A stretch of 10,101 nucleotides of DNA, from IMG/VR virus record IMGVR_UViG_2617270959_000008; one strand, 5' to 3'. Of this stretch, positions 2,080-9,949 are shown one piece after another. Numbering within the stretch: position 1 is the stretch's first letter; every line of letters begins with the position of its first letter. Below the pieces are notes generated by a model. That model was not told the DNA's origin. It saw nothing but the letters and a program-made list of their open reading frames with translations, and did not search any database. Origin of the DNA: a virus (Duplodnaviria > Heunggongvirae > Uroviricota > Caudoviricetes). The position numbers were made by a program, and so were the translations under genes.

Positions 2080-2207
2080 GATAGGCTCCCCTCGTAAATG
2101 AGGTGATACACAAAATGAAACAAAAAAATACTGGTAGTACCAGCATCCTAAATTACAGATTCCATAACATGCTCAATGCTGCTAATGGCAAGAAAGGATG
2201 TTTTTAA

Positions 2208-2420
2208 ATGACAAGCGATAATCTGGACTCCAAGCCCACAATTGAAGATGTTGATTTCAAGCATTTGATCTGCGTCGCAGGAGGAATCATCGAGGATCTA
2301 AAAGGCCCATTTATATTCAAGGCTCCAGAAAATATTAGGCGATTACTTAATCATAAGGGAGTGAATGAAATAAGTAATCTCTCTCAAAAATTTAATGCAG
2401 ATTCTCCATCTTGCTATTAG
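2208..2420 (+). CDS. Hypothetical small protein (70 aa) in AT-rich island A
   Basis: ATG preceded by AAAGGA about 9 nt upstream; AT-rich; convergent with the 2497-3090 gene. No recognisable motif. Could be spurious. Confidence 0.4.
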   Translation: MTSDNLDSKPTIEDVDFKHLICVAGGIIEDLKGPFIFKAPENIRRLLNHKGVNEISNLSQKFNADSPSCY

Positions 2421-2496
2421 AGTTCAGCAGCAGGCACTCAGTGAATGCCTGCTGTAACGACTACTCCAATAATAATGGATGCTCTATGGATACATA

Positions 2497-3090
2497 CTAA
2501 AATATGGATGTTAAATAATTGCTAAGTCTTTTTGCATTCTTACAGAATGCCAAAGCATCTTCCTGAGTACATAAGAGCTTTCCTTGGGATATAGGCTTAA
2601 TAGACTCTCCTGTTTTTTCATAGAGCTTAACAATGTCACTAGAAATTTTGTTTGCAGATTGGACATTTTTCAAGGCAGCGATACCTGAAGCCCGCCCTAA
2701 AGATGTCCCGTTGATCTCAATCCCCTTTTTAGATGCAAGCGTTATAGCGGTTAACTCCAATTCGCGCCAAGCTGAAAGTACAGCAACATTAGGCTGAGTA
2801 CTAGCAAGACTCTCAAAAATATTGAAATTCTCAATGAGTTGTGTCGGCAGGACAGGATTTGTTCCAGGTAAATTTTTAATAACCTCTATACTTTTAGATT
2901 CTATTTCAAACATTTCTTTTTTAAATTTAATCTCATAGTCACCTAGCTTAACTGTATTAAGACGACCTAAAACCATTATTATTTCTTTTTTTAAAGTAAA
3001 AAAGACAATCAAACAAGCAAGAACAATAAATAAAACATTGCCTTCTTTAAGAAGCATCTCTATCCAGTAAAAAAAAGTATAGTCCGTCAT
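2497..3090 (-). CDS. Hypothetical membrane-anchored protein (197 aa, one N-terminal transmembrane helix); moron-type accessory gene of unknown function
   Basis: Long ORF in very AT-rich DNA, where stops are frequent by chance. A hydrophobic helix (NVLFIVLACLIVFFTL) near the N-terminus is followed by a soluble domain. It occupies the slot between the spanins and the HNH/terminase genes. A possible sigma70-like promoter lies upstream on the minus strand (GTGATA -35 at plus 3144-3149, 17-bp spacer, TATACT -10 at plus 3121-3126). Confidence 0.65.
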   Translation of the reverse strand: MTDYTFFYWIEMLLKEGNVLFIVLACLIVFFTLKKEIIMVLGRLNTVKLGDYEIKFKKEMFEIESKSIEVIKNLPGTNPVLPTQLIENFNIFESLASTQPNVAVLSAWRELELTAITLASKKGIEINGTSLGRASGIAALKNVQSANKISSDIVKLYEKTGESIKPISQGKLLCTQEDALAFCKNAKRLSNYLTSIF

Positions 3091-3284
3091 TTTCAGTTCT
3101 CAAATAGAAATAGTTCTCTCAGTATACGTATATTGAGCTCTGCTATCACTTAGTTTATACAACGTTATGCTGGCCACACGCTCGTAGTTGACGTGCATGT
3201 GGCTACTCGCTATTTTAGGTATTTTGGACATCTTCATTAATGCTGAACAGGCACTTCTTGCTGCGGTCTTTCCACTTTACTGCT

Positions 3285-4282: not shown

Positions 4283-4609
4283 TTACTCCTTAGAGCCACC
4301 AAACTTATTACCGATTACTCTCATTGCAGCCCCACGAATAGCATCGACACCGATCAACCCAACGCCACCACCAATGGCAACAGAAAGCGATTTAGGCCAT
4401 CCGACATACTCAAGAGCGGATGCAAAAGTCAGCGTCAGAGCGCCACAGAGTAGAATTTCGAGTGTTTTTCGCTTCCAGCCACCACCACCGCCAAAATAGG
4501 CAATGCGCAAACCAGCCATAACGATCGACATAATCACTGCGCCCAGCGGTGTGTCTCCACGCCACCAGCTCTGGACCAACTCCAACCAGGTATTTGGGTT
4601 ATGAGGCAT
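4283..4609 (-). CDS. Holin, class I, lambda S family (divergent)
   Basis: 108-aa ORF immediately upstream of the endolysin. Three predicted transmembrane segments and a charged C-terminus (RVIGNKFGGSKE). The pattern resembles lambda S105 but with low identity. Confidence 0.8.
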   Translation of the reverse strand: MPHNPNTWLELVQSWWRGDTPLGAVIMSIVMAGLRIAYFGGGGGWKRKTLEILLCGALTLTFASALEYVGWPKSLSVAIGGGVGLIGVDAIRGAAMRVIGNKFGGSKE

Positions 4610-4761
4610 TTGTAGTTATCTCTCACCTCGCTGATACAGCAGGTGCAAATTGAGGGAACATCATGTACCGCAAATCAGAAGCGGAAACGTCAAAGAAGCC
4701 GAACCAATGGATAACTGCGGAATAGGCCAGAACCAACGAATCCCCAGCCCCAGAAACGACA

Positions 4762-4782
4762 AAACCCGCTCGACGCGGGTTT
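4762..4782 (-). terminator. Intrinsic-terminator-like hairpin, stronger on the minus strand, about 150 nt upstream of the holin
   Basis: 8-bp stem AAACCCGC (4762-4769) pairs with GCGGGTTT (4775-4782) around a 5-nt loop. On the minus-strand RNA the stem is followed by UUUUGUCGUUUCU. On the plus strand the downstream tract is weaker. Confidence 0.4.
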
Positions 4783-4827
4783 AAGCTGTGTGGCGAAGTA
4801 ACCACTCTTAACACGATACAATACTTT

Positions 4828-4856
4828 TTGCGTACGCGTTAAGATTTTTTTATAAT
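4828..4856 (+). promoter_or_regulatory. Candidate sigma70 promoter for the large island-B gene
   Basis: TTGCGT (4828-4833), 17-bp spacer, consensus TATAAT (4851-4856), about 70 nt upstream of the ATG at 4926. Plausible own promoter for the cargo gene, but AT-rich DNA yields such matches easily. Confidence 0.35.
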
Positions 4857-4925
4857 TACTTACCTTTCTCACACCAAATGTAAAAGCAATATTTTTTGAT
4901 AATCCTGTTGTTTAAAGGGAATAGC

Positions 4926-7900
4926 ATGAAATCAATTGTACACTTATCCGACTTACACTTATCAGACTCAAAAAAATATGGTTTTCACTGGAAGAAAGCC
5001 AAAGAACTGGTCACAGTATTAGTTAATGATATACATTCATTAAGTAAAGAAAACAACCTCCAGATAGATGCCATTTTTTTTACTGGGGATTTAACGTTTT
5101 CTGGAACCAAAGAGCAATTTCAACTATTTGATGAACATTTCCTCTCTCCACTTATTCAAAAGCTGAACATCAGTAAAAAAAACATTTTTATAACCCCAGG
5201 CAATCATGATGTGGACAGAAGTAAAGTTCATCCACTTGAAAAACAACTGCGAACTGGTTCGGACGAAAATTTCATATCATCATACTTTGATATGATAAAT
5301 AATGGAGAGTATTCATGGGAACGTCTCTACGAGTACTGTGAATATAATAAAACAATATTAGATCATCATTCTGATGTTGAACAATCTGGACGCATGATTA
5401 CATGCTTTAAAGTAACAAACAAATTATACGTCGTTAGCGTAAATAGCGCATGGTTAGCTATGGATGATAATGATATTGGTAACTTACGAATTACCCAAAA
5501 GCAAATTGATTTTATCAATCGTGCCAAAATACCTTCTGATGCAAAAATAATATTATTATGCCATCATCCTTTAGATTGGTTGAATAAGAATGATCGTGAC
5601 ATTTTTTCAACATTTATTGAAAAAAAAGTTTCAATGTTCTTTTTTGGTCATATGCATGATTTTAAACAAAAACTAGAATCTAGTTTTTGTGAAAACATCA
5701 CCCTCTTTTTGCAAGCAGGAACTTTGGATACTAGTGAAAATGTATCAGGCTATTCATTAATAAATTTTAATAGTTCAAATGTCATATCAGACGGAAGAAT
5801 TTTTTATAGAAAATATAATAAAGAAAAAACATGCTATGAACCATGGGAAGAAAGAGGAAATGGTGGTGTTTTTGATTTCACCACTGAGAAAACTCTAACT
5901 TTTGACTCTGAAAAATTTGCAACATTATCTAATGAGATTCTAGAGAAAACTGATAAGGATTTATTAATTAACATTGGAATCTCTGATGAAAAGAAAAAAA
6001 GTCTAAGAACTCTATTTACTGAACCAAATTTCCTTGAATTTGCTCTTGGAGCCATGCCTTCTATGGAGATTAAGTCCACACAAGAATTACTAGAAGGACG
6101 AAACAACCTTGTGATTGTAGGAAACCATAGCTCAGGTAAAACATCTCTTTTAAAATACCTATTCATTAAGAGTCTAGAAAAACAGGCCTGCAAAGACTTC
6201 AGTAACTTTGCATTTTTCTTAGATTTAAATGCAATTGAATTAAATAGATTAAATACAATTGTAAGCGCATTATGTACACAATATTTCAATGCAGATTCGA
6301 CCACATCTTTTGAAGAAAAAATTAAAAAAATGTTACATGAGGGAAGATGTGTTATATATATTGATAATCTGGACAATATAAATACAAAAGAACAATGTGT
6401 AATTTCTGATTTTTTTATAAAATTCAAAGAATGTAGATTTATCGTAACTGCTGGCTATAATAATTCAGATCTGGTAGTTAAAATATTATCAGATGAAAGC
6501 AAAGCTAAATTTCATGCAATTGCTATAGGTTCATTACGCAGATCTAATGTTCGCGATATTGTATCAAGATGGCACGACACAACATCACAAAATATAATAT
6601 ACAAAGAAATCACGCGAACAATCAACAATTCGCAACTTCCTCATAATTATTTTACATACTCAATGCTTTTAGCTATTTATGAAGTTGATCATGACGTTAA
6701 AGGAATATTAAGTGAGTCTGATATTATAGAAAACTTCATAGAAATTTTGCTTCGTAAACATTTTATGGATACTCCGCCTAATAAGCCACAATTTAAAGAA
6801 CTTCGGCATTTTCTTGGATATTTAGGATTTACATTATTCAAAAACAAATGTAATTTTATTTCAAATAATGATCTTCTGCAGACTGCAATAATTTTCAATA
6901 GAGATACCATGCATGATTATCAAGTAGAAGACTATATAAAACCATTAAAAGAATGTGGAATATTGAAAGAAGAGCTATGTAATGTGATTTTCTCGCAGCC
7001 TTGCTTTTTATACTATTCCATCGCTTATTTCATGAAGCATAACGAAGAGCTAAAGAAAGAAATTTTATCCGATAATAATTATCTACATCTACATAAAGTT
7101 ATTGAATACTATTCATCGCAGAACTCATCTAGTCTTGATTTATTATACTTACTTAAAAAGAAGACTAATGCAATCAAATCTTCTTTATCTGAACGAATGC
7201 TCGAAGATAAGGGAATAAATATTGAAGATATAAAGATTGAAGACTCTAATACTTTCTCTATTTTAGATATGGTATCAACCCAAGATGATTTCGAAAAAAA
7301 GATAGAATCACTCCGTGCAGATAGAGAAAAAGATGACGCGCGACTAGATGAATTATCACCTTTATCTGATAAAGATAAAAAAGCTAATATATCAAATGTT
7401 AGAGCGGAAGGTAATAATAATCTGTTACATGATCTTATTAACACTTTATCTCTTTATGCAAGGGTATTCCGTAGTACTGAATTATCTATGGAAAGAGAAA
7501 ATATATTAAATATATTTAATGACCTTGTAAAGGGTTATGTTTTTTACATGAAAGCGTCACTAGTACTAATGGATGATTCATTTGTTCTTCCAGTAATACT
7601 CCCTGCATTAGAAAAGAAAATGCAAGAGGATAAATTAACCGATAACGAAAGACAACGAGTTTTTGAAATGTTTAAACTAGTATTGTCTTTAGTTCGCTCA
7701 ATGATCCCAAATAACATACAGTTTATTATGAGCAATGACTTAAGCTCGAAAAAACCACGTATTGCAAACATTATTACTGAATCAAAAGACTCAAATAGCA
7801 ATCCTGTAGAAAAGGCTATTTTAACTTTCACCTTAATGGATATTAAAGATGAAATGGTTATACAATTAGCTAACGATTTAGCAAAGATACAAAACAAAGT

Positions 7901-8078
7901 TGTTCAAGAATCTCTTTTCTTCAAGATTAATCAAATTATAACAAGTAACTATGATTTAAAAAGAACTGAAGAAGAAGCATTGAAAGAGTTAGCAAAAAAC
8001 ATTGGCATTAAAAGAAAATTAATTCTCACACCCAAGATTAGTGATGCCTTTAATACGTTAAACCGCATAGGACATTAA
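4926..8078 (+). CDS. Large fusion protein (about 1050 aa): N-terminal SbcD/Mre11-like metallophosphoesterase domain + central P-loop NTPase (STAND/AAA-like spacing) + about 450-aa helical C-terminal region; candidate single-gene anti-phage defense protein
   Basis: Uninterrupted 3.15-kb ORF in about 27% G+C DNA. The ATG at 4926 has an AAGGGA ribosome-binding site; the ORF-track start at 4896 is a TTG. Metallophosphoesterase motifs are all present: IVHLSDLHLS (DxH, 4950-4958), FFTGDLTF (GD, 5085-5090), GNHD (5199-5210), CHH (5562-5570), GHMHD (5646-5660); the first three resemble SbcD/Mre11. Walker A is VGNHSSGKTS (6120-6146) and Walker B is CVIYIDNLD (6351-6374). Confidence 0.9.
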   Translation: MKSIVHLSDLHLSDSKKYGFHWKKAKELVTVLVNDIHSLSKENNLQIDAIFFTGDLTFSGTKEQFQLFDEHFLSPLIQKLNISKKNIFITPGNHDVDRSKVHPLEKQLRTGSDENFISSYFDMINNGEYSWERLYEYCEYNKTILDHHSDVEQSGRMITCFKVTNKLYVVSVNSAWLAMDDNDIGNLRITQKQIDFINRAKIPSDAKIILLCHHPLDWLNKNDRDIFSTFIEKKVSMFFFGHMHDFKQKLESSFCENITLFLQAGTLDTSENVSGYSLINFNSSNVISDGRIFYRKYNKEKTCYEPWEERGNGGVFDFTTEKTLTFDSEKFATLSNEILEKTDKDLLINIGISDEKKKSLRTLFTEPNFLEFALGAMPSMEIKSTQELLEGRNNLVIVGNHSSGKTSLLKYLFIKSLEKQACKDFSNFAFFLDLNAIELNRLNTIVSALCTQYFNADSTTSFEEKIKKMLHEGRCVIYIDNLDNINTKEQCVISDFFIKFKECRFIVTAGYNNSDLVVKILSDESKAKFHAIAIGSLRRSNVRDIVSRWHDTTSQNIIYKEITRTINNSQLPHNYFTYSMLLAIYEVDHDVKGILSESDIIENFIEILLRKHFMDTPPNKPQFKELRHFLGYLGFTLFKNKCNFISNNDLLQTAIIFNRDTMHDYQVEDYIKPLKECGILKEELCNVIFSQPCFLYYSIAYFMKHNEELKKEILSDNNYLHLHKVIEYYSSQNSSSLDLLYLLKKKTNAIKSSLSERMLEDKGINIEDIKIEDSNTFSILDMVSTQDDFEKKIESLRADREKDDARLDELSPLSDKDKKANISNVRAEGNNNLLHDLINTLSLYARVFRSTELSMERENILNIFNDLVKGYVFYMKASLVLMDDSFVLPVILPALEKKMQEDKLTDNERQRVFEMFKLVLSLVRSMIPNNIQFIMSNDLSSKKPRIANIITESKDSNSNPVEKAILTFTLMDIKDEMVIQLANDLAKIQNKVVQESLFFKINQIITSNYDLKRTEEEALKELAKNIGIKRKLILTPKISDAFNTLNRIGH

Positions 8079-8104
8079 AATGCCACTTTTTTGATATAAT
8101 TAAA

Positions 8105-8126
8105 AACCACCCGTAACAGGGTGGTT
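8105..8126. terminator. Hairpin terminator between convergent genes; stronger in the minus-strand direction (candidate tR'-like late terminator and/or terminator of the large plus-strand gene)
   Basis: Perfect 8-bp stem AACCACCC (8105-8112) pairs with GGGTGGTT (8119-8126) around the loop GTAACA. The minus-strand RNA has a downstream U-rich tract (UUUUAAUUAUAU). The plus strand has an A-tract before and a weak UUCUCU after the stem. The hairpin lies 27 nt after the stop of the large gene. Confidence 0.5.
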
Positions 8127-8181
8127 CTCTACCTCTGCTGCAATATATCTCAAATAATTAAAACGAGCAGGAATTTACCTA

Positions 8182-8361
8182 TCAAAAAACTTGACTACCG
8201 GAATTCGAATTTAAAACCCCATTAGTCTTTTTAGGTTTTGTCATTTTCAAATTAGCTTTCATACTACATGCCATAAAATATTGGGTAAGAAAAATGGTAT
8301 TTAAATAATTCCAAGAAGTAGTTTTATCATAAAAATAATTAATTCTTTGTTTCTTATTCAT
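8182..8361 (-). CDS. Hypothetical small protein (59 aa) with a strong Shine-Dalgarno sequence, between Q and the hairpin terminator
   Basis: ATG at 8361-8359 is preceded by AAGGAG with a 5-nt spacer; the ORF-track start is a GTG at 8367. Product MNKKQRINYFYDKTTSWNYLNTIFLTQYFMACSMKANLKMTKPKKTNGVLNSNSGSQVF is Lys/Asn-rich with one hydrophobic stretch. No recognisable homology. Confidence 0.4.
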   Translation of the reverse strand: MNKKQRINYFYDKTTSWNYLNTIFLTQYFMACSMKANLKMTKPKKTNGVLNSNSGSQVF

Positions 8362-8592
8362 GCACACTCCTTAGTAAAATATAGAAATAAAAGACAAATC
8401 ACTTATAAATGTCATGTTAAAAAAATTCTCATCATGATTATTGATGAGTGATTTTATATTATCAAAAAATTATATTATTAACAACTCTTGTTTATTACTC
8501 AACCAATACCAAAATCATTAGCCACGCATATATATTTTCAAACATATAAAAACAACACACAATATAAAATCCAGCCACAAAAACTCGCACTT

Positions 8593-8937
8593 CTATTTTA
8601 TGAAATAAAAACACCCTTCAATAAAACCTAAAGCAGTTTGCAATTCCTTTCTAATCGTACCGTCCGAACATTTTCGCTTCTTCGCAATAGTTCTAAGCGA
8701 AATACCAATAACAAAATGAGCTATAATTAGCTCATATTCCTCTGGTTTATACTTGCGCAACCGAGCCACACAACTATCTATCATAATGCCTTCGTCATCA
8801 TCACACTGAATCCGGGACTTTTTGCCATGAGGTAAAAGCCCCTTGAAGCCAGCGGCTACCGGTTGCCAATCCACACCACTGTTATCTGCTGCAGCCCATG
8901 CTCCCCAGCGGTCCAATACTTCATACATATCACGCAT
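8593..8937 (-). CDS. Late-gene antiterminator Q, QuuD-type
   Basis: Product MRDMYEVLDRWGAWAAADNSGVDWQPVAAGFKGLLPHGKKSRIQCDDDEGIMIDSCVARLRKYK... aligns with my recollection of E. coli DLP12 QuuD (MRDIQMVLERWGAWAA...AAGFKGL...CSDG...). The ATG at 8937 has a GGAGA ribosome-binding site 6 nt upstream; the ORF-track start at 8952 is a TTG. It lies immediately upstream of the lysis cassette region. Confidence 0.8.
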   Translation of the reverse strand: MRDMYEVLDRWGAWAAADNSGVDWQPVAAGFKGLLPHGKKSRIQCDDDEGIMIDSCVARLRKYKPEEYELIIAHFVIGISLRTIAKKRKCSDGTIRKELQTALGFIEGCFYFIK

Positions 8938-8954: not shown

Positions 8955-9542
8955 TCAGGCCAGCACGCCAATTGCCAGCGCACGATCGATAAAACGAAAT
9001 ATCAGCTCCAGCTGGGAGCCATACTTCTCTTCAAATGCCACGGTATCCGCATGCAGCTCGTCGTGATGCTTTCTGCACAAAGGCAACACAAAGAGGTCAT
9101 GCGCTTTTGTACCCATTCCACCCTGACCGTGGCCTATCAGGTGGTGGGGATCATCAGCAGGCTTTCCACAACATGCACACGGCTGTGTCTTAACCCAGCG
9201 CGTGTACTTTTCATTAACCCAGCGGTGACGTTTTGGGCGTAACATAAAAGACTCCGGCGACTCCGGCTCCACTTTCAGCGCCAGCACCTTTTTCGCTTTA
9301 TCCTGGATGATGCTGGTGGCAGGAACCGAAGGAACAAGGTCACTTTCCCGGGTGACAGACGGCACTACAGGCTTCGGTAATCTCAGTGCCTTACGGGCTG
9401 CACTTTCCGGTAAGGCATCCGCCAGGTCATTACGAACCAGCCACCAGCATAGTTCCGGCATTGTCACAACGTGACTATCATCAAAACCGAGATCCCGACG
9501 CACAACAGACAACATCCAGCGGGCACAGTTATCCGTTGCCAT
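8955..9542 (-). CDS. DUF968-like phage protein, C-terminal Cys/His-rich (HNH-like or zinc-binding) portion
   Basis: 195-aa ORF containing CACCGKPADDPHHLIGHGQGGMGTKAHDLFVLPLCRKHHDELH, which I recall as the conserved core of DUF968 proteins found next to Q in lambdoid prophages. Its stop lies 15 nt from the Q start. Confidence 0.7.
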   Translation of the reverse strand: MATDNCARWMLSVVRRDLGFDDSHVVTMPELCWWLVRNDLADALPESAARKALRLPKPVVPSVTRESDLVPSVPATSIIQDKAKKVLALKVEPESPESFMLRPKRHRWVNEKYTRWVKTQPCACCGKPADDPHHLIGHGQGGMGTKAHDLFVLPLCRKHHDELHADTVAFEEKYGSQLELIFRFIDRALAIGVLA

Positions 9543-9949
9543 TGATTCCAGCCATTCGTGAACTGATCGCGCAGCTGGTTATCGCAGTGCCAGCACAGAC
9601 GGATTGCGCCCGGCGCGTGTCGCATTGTGGTCATGTTCTCGCTGTGCCAGTCGGAATGAGGCCACTGGCAGCCTTTTTCACGAAGTAACCAGCTTTCAAG
9701 ACATTCCACTCCACCAGCACGACGGATCACTGCCTCATTGCGGAACACGGCCCGAACGGCAGGATCATCCGCCAGCGGTTGTGATGCTGCCGGAACGGCA
9801 CCACTGGCGAAAGATGAATAACGTTCCGGCTCAGGCTCCAGCAGGACACGCCCCTGCATAAACAGGGGCATCAGCTCTGAACCTGGTCTGAACAATACGA
9901 TCCCCATACGCGGGGCAATTTCAGGGGTCAGTAGTGCTCTCACGGTCAC
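9464..9949 (-). CDS. Hypothetical phage protein (161 aa); may be the N-terminal part of the DUF968-like gene separated by a frameshift, or an independent overlapping gene
   Basis: GTG start at 9949 preceded by a GAGGTGA ribosome-binding site that overlaps the stop of the upstream gene. Contains CWHCDNQ. It overlaps the 8955-9542 ORF by 79 nt in a different frame. Confidence 0.5.
   Translation of the reverse strand: MTVRALLTPEIAPRMGIVLFRPGSELMPLFMQGRVLLEPEPERYSSFASGAVPAASQPLADDPAVRAVFRNEAVIRRAGGVECLESWLLREKGCQWPHSDWHSENMTTMRHAPGAIRLCWHCDNQLRDQFTNGWNQWQRITVPAGCCLLCVGISVLMIVTL

Follow-up and report, generated by a model that had tools for sequence, protein, structure and literature searches.

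The stretch of DNA analysed here, IMG/VR record IMGVR_UViG_2617270959_000008 (10,101 nucleotides (nt), referred to below as the window), belongs to a lambdoid E. coli prophage in which the minus strand carries the late genes, as seen from the listing of open reading frames (ORFs), Pfam and the RefSeq annotation of the identical chromosome region. Between the antiterminator gene Q and the holin gene it carries a candidate defence gene on the opposite strand, called the cargo gene in the following, and two terminator-like hairpins on the minus strand at 8105-8126 and 4762-4782. A conserved block at 4758-4840 is probably the late-control module of this Q protein, a member of the Q21 family, and would comprise the late promoter pR', the Q site, a pause region and the terminator tR'. 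The cargo gene would then lie outside the late transcript, and the hairpin at 8105-8126 would be a terminator at a junction of convergent transcription. The probability of this reading as a whole is estimated at about 70%.

The transcription map of this region is thereby corrected. The preliminary description of the DNA had assumed that late transcription, on its way from Q to the holin gene, meets both hairpins and that the pair insulates the cargo gene from it. The comparative evidence places the Q site, the -10-type hexamers and tR' at 4758-4840, all of them between the cargo gene and the holin gene, so that late transcription would start downstream of the cargo gene and never meet the hairpin at 8105-8126. 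As it is situated between Q and pR', the cargo gene would never be crossed by late transcription; it would not be embedded in the late operon, and the proposed insulation is not supported. The suggestion that one of the two hairpins is the tR' equivalent was upheld for 4762-4782, the end of the conserved and Q-linked module.

The hairpins, the conservation of the module, its linkage to Q and the position of the cargo gene are direct observations. The block of ~85 base pairs (bp) on the minus strand, directly upstream of the holin gene and with the hairpin 4762-4782 at its end, is shared from ~4840 to 4758 by the strains H22, which has another cargo, and EC71, which has another downstream region, and homology breaks off on both of its sides. 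It recurs in 80 phage records, and its 17-mer TGTTAAGAGTGGTTACT, which served as the exact search pattern for the loci, was found in at least 120 IMG/VR contigs. The survey comprised 127 loci, 105 of them with enough upstream DNA to look for Q. In each of these 105, the motif is preceded on its own strand by a PF06530 Q gene. The distance from Q to the motif was 3-44 nt in 13 loci and 620-3780 nt in 92 loci (3780 nt here), and in the latter, cargo that is mostly encoded on the opposite strand fills the gap of 0.6-3.8 kb. ORFs were exclusively on the opposite strand in 79 of the 88 distinct Q-module intervals. The block begins at the Q stop codon in an Stx2a phage (L004), which is the classical Q-pR'-tR' layout; in an Stx1a phage and in Shigella phage SfII, two or three genes on the opposite strand intervene between Q and the block. 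The starts of the late region downstream of it vary as well, being a lambda-type holin gene, essD of DLP12, tRNA genes or stx. In EC71, homology to the window ends at 4761 within the T-run, with tRNA genes beyond.

The block also follows Q in its sequence. It contains palindromes of 8-14 bp, and their class corresponds one-to-one to the class of the Q helix-turn-helix in the 105 loci. Seven principal classes were distinguished: GCGTACGC, which is the one found here, GCGG(T/G)CCGC, TTTACGTACGTAAA (the QuuD class), TTTACGATCGTAAA, TTTACAATCGTAAA, TGTTATAACA and TGGAATTCCA. The GCGTACGC class alone includes at least 13 different cargo lengths. Since the palindrome class tracks the Q class despite differing cargo, the module is tied to Q across cargo, and the palindrome behaves as expected of a Q-binding element, for which it is the predicted candidate. 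The covarying palindromes thus form a set of predicted Q-specificity classes. They also suggest a symmetric Q site for these short Q21-family proteins, in contrast to the direct repeats of phage 21. In the window there is a single copy of the palindrome and a single copy of the invariant motif, both of them away from Q. A profile of these Q proteins matched the Q21 structures 6JNX/6P18 (E=1e-10, Q21 residues 20-100); the Q sequence searched singly, without a profile, had no match in the PDB.

Read along the late strand, the block consists of the palindrome, an A5 tract (T4 in some classes), ~10 variable bases, a hexamer of the type TAnnnT, the sequence AAGAGT-GG-TTACTTCGCC, the G+C hairpin and a T-run. 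Of 75 distinct elements, 71 have a distance of 24.5-25 bp between the centre of the palindrome and the invariant motif. In the TAnnnT hexamer, the A in second place and the T in sixth place are found in all 53 distinct variants, and at 4818-4813 the hexamer reaches the best mean weight-matrix score of any position. In the Q class of the GCGTACGC type it is overlapped by TATTGT at 4818-4823 on the minus strand. AAGAGT is followed by the end of the T-run after 49-53 nt in 66 of 71 variants. Hairpin and T-run were retained in 71 of 74 distinct variants with many loops and at least three stem sequences; the variation of the terminator is given as RNAalifold counts, since loop indels blur the alignment columns and most of the stems are identical. 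A small hairpin, GUGGU-UACUUC-GCCAC (4792-4805, minus strand), is nearly invariant; in the predicted short RNA it comes before the hairpin of the terminator. It may reflect pause signals at the DNA level rather than RNA structure.

The start of the late transcript can be assigned in different ways. TAnnnT (4818-4813) may be the -10 element, with a start near 4806. The class-specific TATTGT (4823-4818) may take this role instead; the start would then be near 4809-4811, and AAGAGT would be the pause element, in line with lambda and phage 21. A third assignment makes TAnnnT itself the pause element. In the weight-matrix scan, TAnnnT comes out as the most consistent of the -10-type elements, without being assigned to promoter or pause.

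On the minus strand, both hairpins have a G+C-rich stem, a loop of 3-8 nt and a U-rich tract directly 3' of the stem, as is typical of intrinsic terminators. The hairpin at 8105-8126 (AACCACCC / loop / GGGTGGTT) has the perfect 8-bp stem and the minus-strand U-tract reported earlier, and its stem can be extended to 11 bp. The tail is TTT-AATTATATC, which gives five U and then AAUUAU in the RNA. The minus-strand RNA folds with -17.2 kcal/mol (z=-3.6), and 1 of 200 shuffles was as good. For the hairpin at 4762-4782 (AAACCCGC / GTCGA / GCGGGTTT, five of the 8 bp being G-C pairs), the coordinates and the stem length were correct in the preliminary description, but the tail given there, 'UUUUGUCGUUUCU', counts three U that are already in the stem. 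The tail proper is T-GTCGTTTCT (U-GUCGUUUCU in the RNA) and is interrupted (UUUU-G-UCGUUUCU). The local fold has -18.8 kcal/mol (z=-2.2), and hence the calculation proposed there places both hairpins well ahead of their shuffles on the minus strand. In a consensus scan, 4782-4762 was the top terminator-like site. The scan misses 8126-8105 only because its greedy G-T stem extension consumes the T-run, and a separate scan recovers it. The window contains 15 terminator-like sites compared with 8.5 ± 3.1 in shuffles, so that the hairpins are more than chance. A scan of the whole window against Rfam (E<=1) gave no match.

From this arrangement, the following circuit is proposed. In the lysogen, polymerase would start at pR' (within 4806-4811) and end at 4758-4761, and the resulting RNA of ~50 nt would leave the lysis genes off. 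After induction, Q from the early-right transcript would bind the palindrome and load onto polymerase paused just downstream of it. Q would then let the polymerase pass tR' and continue into the genes for holin, lysis and packaging. Transcription from the Q side and from the cargo gene would converge at 8105-8126, where mainly the Q/early transcripts would stop.

The cargo slot and the convergent junction

An AT-rich cassette of 3.8 kb lies between Q and the block, with a G+C content of 22-34% across ~4843-8613 compared with 50-58% in the flanks. It contains the tail of Q, a small ORF, the hairpin 8105-8126, the opposite-strand defence-candidate gene and the -10 element of that gene. In PADLOC, the cargo protein has a match (E=1e-97) to PDC-S60, a candidate defence family, and its phosphoesterase part is calcineurin-like. 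Relatives of the cargo gene in IMG/VR were 100%-identical copies only, and none were found among the GTDB representative genomes, where they were sought to see whether the hairpin travels with the cargo. The region 8040-8600 was found in 16 E. coli genomes and never without this cargo. The same holds for the small ORF, which has no match in Pfam or PADLOC.

The cassettes reach into Q. The last 5-40 codons of Q past the motif GF(I/V)(E/D)G differ between loci with different cargo, and therefore each cassette supplies its own C-terminal tail and stop codon. In the window, the boundary on the Q side is located inside Q (8593-8630, minus strand), with the last ~6 codons belonging to the AT-rich cassette. 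On the other side, EC71 (L003 3600-4010) and eight related genomes have the same unit of Q, cargo, pR' and tR' followed, directly past the T-run, by three tRNA genes and another lysis cassette. As the EC71 junction lies exactly after the T-run, the end of tR' is a recombination boundary.

The hairpin at 8105-8126 is located 27 nt past the stop of the cargo gene (8078) and 56 nt past that of the small ORF (8182). Analogous G+C hairpins with T-runs are frequent just after the Q stop in loci with unrelated cargos, where they face the convergent cargo, e.g. L002, L011, L041, L049, L088, L094 and L100. By this analogy, it is most likely a junction terminator that ends Q/early-right transcription and shields the cargo gene from antisense transcription. 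Since Q would load only at its binding site ~3.3 kb further on, the hairpin would be outside the path of Q-modified polymerase, and since the good U-tract faces the Q side, it would mainly stop Q/early transcripts. It may also form the 3' end of the cargo mRNA. Whether it mainly serves the cargo gene, as a plus-strand terminator or a 3' hairpin that stabilises the mRNA, with an incidental effect on the minus strand, was weighed against this. The short distance to the cargo stop within the AT-rich cassette and a plus-strand fold of -14.4 kcal/mol (z=-3.7) speak for such a role. The five U and AAUUAU, however, are on the minus strand, whereas the plus-strand tail, UUCUCUACC, is poor for intrinsic termination: UUCUCU follows the stem, and the A5 before it is the U5 of the minus strand. 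A main role for the cargo gene is thus conceivable but rather unlikely, and the two roles are not exclusive.

The defence-candidate gene accordingly would be housed in a slot between Q and the remote promoter on which Q acts, shielded by a convergent-junction terminator on one side and by a divergent pR' on the other. According to the survey, the slot is widely used for cargo in lambdoid prophages with Q21-family proteins, including DLP12, some Stx1 phages, SfII and SfIV. This bears on the expression of moron and defence genes in lysogens and on where pR' should be sought when such phages are annotated.

Alternative positions of the late promoter

A promoter near the hairpin 4762-4782 had been proposed before, and a late promoter just upstream of this hairpin is retained here. 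The hexamers chosen for it were TTGGTG and TATAAA with a -10 at 4849-4854. Transcription would then start at ~4842 and run through the palindrome to a stop at 4762-4782, with an RNA of ~85 nt as its product. Both hexamers occur at a spacing of 17 bp, a -10-like hexamer is found in H22 on this strand at an equal distance, and the 86-nt RNA folds with -29.1 kcal/mol (z -3.1). However, the pair is not positionally conserved on the minus strand, where only ~18 of 53 variants have hexamers at that offset, with poor scores. Where Q abuts the module, no counterpart exists at this spacing. If the Q site were part of the transcript, the layout would also be unlike that of lambda and phage 21, in which the site is located between -35 and -10 (PMC6606751). 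This promoter is therefore considered improbable.

The positional signal is found on the opposite strand. A -10-like hexamer in the direction of the cargo gene lies 17-19 bp from the same -35-like block, TTGCGT, in 19 of 33 distinct junction types (background 12%, binomial P=7e-10). Because it is conserved in position on the cargo-direction strand, this signal is read as that of a cargo promoter back-to-back with pR' and not as that of a late promoter. The minus-strand TATAAA at 4849-4854 is the mirror of the perfect plus-strand TATAAT at 4851-4856 and overlaps it. The -35 of the putative cargo promoter is made of the A-tract plus half of the palindrome, and the promoter thus appears to borrow it from these conserved parts of pR'. 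It is a speculative thought, and not a probable one, that the short Q21-family proteins bind the palindromic site as a symmetric dimer and that this site doubles as the -35 of a back-to-back promoter for whichever cargo occupies the slot. If this were true, Q binding at late onset would turn on the lysis genes while occluding the promoter of the defence/moron gene of the prophage, a built-in silencing of self-targeting defence during lytic growth.

A position of pR' just downstream of Q (~8400-8590) was implied by the idea that late transcription runs antisense through the cargo gene and meets both hairpins, one of them being tR' and the pair insulating the cargo gene without Q. It would be the textbook position known from lambda, 21 and 933W. 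The TATAAT at 8469-8474 on the minus strand, cited earlier as a possible promoter element, is present, several promoter-like hexamer pairs lie within 8437-8541, and the hairpin 8105-8126 is a good minus-strand terminator. Nevertheless, the region has a G+C content of 22-29% (22% around the TATAAT), and neither the Q-class-specific palindrome nor the invariant motif is found there. The window has 22 promoter-like sites compared with 22.2 expected, so that the hexamers of the preliminary description are on their own indistinguishable from chance. DNA that exists only with this cargo, like 8040-8600, cannot be the conserved target of Q. Moreover, in other members of this Q class the convergent cargo gene directly adjoins Q; H22 and SfII have the two stop codons <=20 nt apart, which leaves no room for a promoter next to Q. 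A pR' at this place is hence very improbable.

The least probable reading, an independent small-RNA gene or a holin leader outside Q control at 4758-4840, could draw on the compact two-hairpin RNA encoded by the block and on short pR'-tR' RNAs that can be regulatory, as StxS (PMC7547250), but the block always follows a Q21-family gene with a matching palindrome, precedes the differing late-region starts listed above and matches no Rfam family, and a regulatory role would add to that as pR'-tR' and not replace it.

Several points weigh against the late-control module as proposed. Promoter activity, pausing, Q binding and termination are all deduced from sequence. No convincing -35 hexamer stands beside the conserved -10-type hexamers, and with three possible assignments of -10 and pause element the start of pR' is uncertain by ~6 nt or more. 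Phage 21 Q binds two direct repeats (PMC6606751). Repeats of this type, TGAGCA in phage 21, were not found in the module, which has the 8-bp palindrome GCGTACGC instead, so that the binding mode of Q would differ from that of the only solved family member. The match between Q and palindrome could partly reflect co-inheritance, and the 17-mer is invariant by construction, as it was the search pattern. All known copies of the hairpin at 8105-8126, 16 in number, are near-identical and from E. coli, and its role was assigned by position and analogy; an N-like early antiterminator, if the phage has one, would read through it. Finally, the prophage looks defective and the circuit may no longer operate.

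Neighbouring genes and coordinates

The gene order on the minus strand is a DUF968 pseudogene, Q, the ORF of 59 amino acids (aa), the plus-strand cargo gene, the holin gene, a GH24 endolysin gene, Rz, a second AT-rich insert, an HNH gene and the terminase genes. The coordinates of the main features are collected in Table 1.

Table 1. Features of the Q-holin region, with positions in the window, strand and basis of assignment.
Feature	Position	Strand	Basis and remarks
Q antiterminator gene, 114 aa, Q21 family	8593-8937	-	Pfam PF06530 (E=1e-45); RefSeq annotation
Small ORF, 59 aa, hypothetical	8182-8361	-	RefSeq coding sequence; between Q and hairpin 8105-8126, codirectional with Q; preceded by AAGGAG
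Hairpin 8105-8126 plus T-run, intrinsic-terminator-like, convergent junction	8102-8126	-	Fold; position
Cargo gene, metallophosphoesterase fused to NACHT/STAND NTPase, 1050 aa, ~30% G+C	4926-8078	+	Pfam PF00149, PF05729, PF24406
Putative cargo promoter, -35 TTGCGT (4828-4833), 17-bp spacer, -10 TATAAT (4851-4856)	4828-4856	+	Sequence
Palindrome GCGTACGC, candidate Q-binding element	4830-4837	.	Occurs once in the window; followed by A5 tract (4829-4825) on minus strand
TATCGT, most conserved -10-type hexamer (TAnnnT)	4813-4818	-	pR' -10 or sigma-dependent pause element
Invariant block T-AAGAGT-GG-TTACTTCGCC	4792-4810	-	AAGAGT (4809-4804) is a candidate sigma-dependent pause element
Hairpin 4762-4782 plus T-run, read as tR'	4758-4782	-	Terminator scan, folds; ~150 nt upstream of holin start codon
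Holin gene, lambda S family, first late gene past tR'	4283-4609	-	Pfam PF05106; RefSeq annotation

A weak AT-rich hairpin, CTCATCA...TGATGAG followed by AAUUUUUUU, was observed on the minus strand at 8428-8448, 145 nt after the Q stop and upstream of the small ORF. With -7.6 kcal/mol (z -1.7), it could be a partial terminator or due to chance. The second AT-rich insert at ~2100-3150 (28-41% G+C), between the Rz/spanin region and the HNH and terminase genes, carries an ORF of 70 aa (2208-2420, plus strand) and one of 197 aa (2497-3090, minus strand). Both had no match in Pfam or PADLOC. The insert is probably another moron island. According to RefSeq, the DUF968 gene upstream of Q (8955-9949, minus strand) is frameshifted and a tail sheath gene has an internal stop. 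Fragments of regulator genes are found further upstream (L001 1-603). The prophage is probably defective.

Comparison with known Q-dependent systems

PF06530 is the family of phage 21 Q (PMC9388147); an initial assignment of the family to phage 82 was rejected in view of this literature, and the pause anatomy of phage 82, with an extended -10-like element near +9-14 and GCC at +15-17, does not fit the block. The phage 21 pR' recovered from IMG/VR has its -10, pause element and terminator within ~46 nt. The two systems resemble each other in the homologous Q, a Q site upstream of a -10-like element, an intrinsic terminator at most ~50 nt from the start and late lysis genes downstream. In contrast to phage 21, Q has 114 aa instead of 162 and is devoid of the long loop in the helix-turn[loop]-helix of Q21, there is no -35 of the type TTGACA, and Q and pR' are 3.8 kb apart instead of adjacent.

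In lambda pR', AACGAT is the sigma-dependent pause element, with pausing at +16 (PMC5001585). Like the circuit proposed here, lambda has a constitutive late promoter, a short terminated RNA (pR'-6S RNA-tR') and a terminator that is overridden by Q. The initial transcribed regions are alike, with AACGAT-GGG-TTAATTCGC in lambda and AAGAGT-GG-TTACTTCGC here, and the invariant block at 4792-4810 resembles +1..+18 of lambda pR' (AACGATGGGTTAATTCGC). The lambda Q belongs to an unrelated family (PF03589), however, its RNA has 194 nt compared with ~50 nt here, and no cargo is located between Q and pR'. In lysogens of Stx phages, transcripts from pR' stop early at tR', before they reach the accessory and lysis genes (PMC7547250). 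StxS of the 933W/Sakai type is thus similar in its early termination at tR'. It was rejected as a homologue, as it goes with a Q of 144 aa, is 258 nt long and processed to 74 nt, and its sequence is unrelated to the block. In these phages the cargo, stx, lies downstream of tR' and hence inside the late transcript.

The closest counterpart in gene order is DLP12 of E. coli K-12 (quuD - nmpC - essD/rrrD/rzpD), where a Q21-family Q gene, opposite-strand cargo and the module precede the holin gene. The module of DLP12 has the identical 17-mer and the CCCGCC/GCGGG hairpin. It differs in its Q class, the palindrome TTTACGTACGTAAA and another holin family, and its cargo is the porin pseudogene nmpC instead of a defence candidate. 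A Q-like factor reportedly controls the DLP12 lysis cassette, going by the title of Rueggeberg et al. 2013. In K-12 MG1655 (~576,874; L247), the start by which the promoter fragment of the DLP12 lysis operon (-121 to +650) is numbered maps ~350 nt upstream of the pR'-tR' block, as seen after mapping the published primers (PMC7918800). This start is RpoE-dependent and uninformative on pR'; as it is upstream of the block, its transcripts would also have to pass tR'. RNA 5' or 3' ends for the DLP12 copy had no entries in the searchable supplements of PMC7815308, PMC11092163 and PMC12207403.

Taken together, the region would work by the established switch of Q-dependent antitermination and has the gene order of DLP12. 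The module, as read from its sequence, would depart from the solved case of phage 21 by a palindromic candidate Q site, the lack of a consensus -35 and its usual detachment from Q by cargo. The widespread cargo slot between Q and pR', the covarying palindromes and the promoter region shared with the cargo gene are broader patterns that count as leads and not as conclusions.

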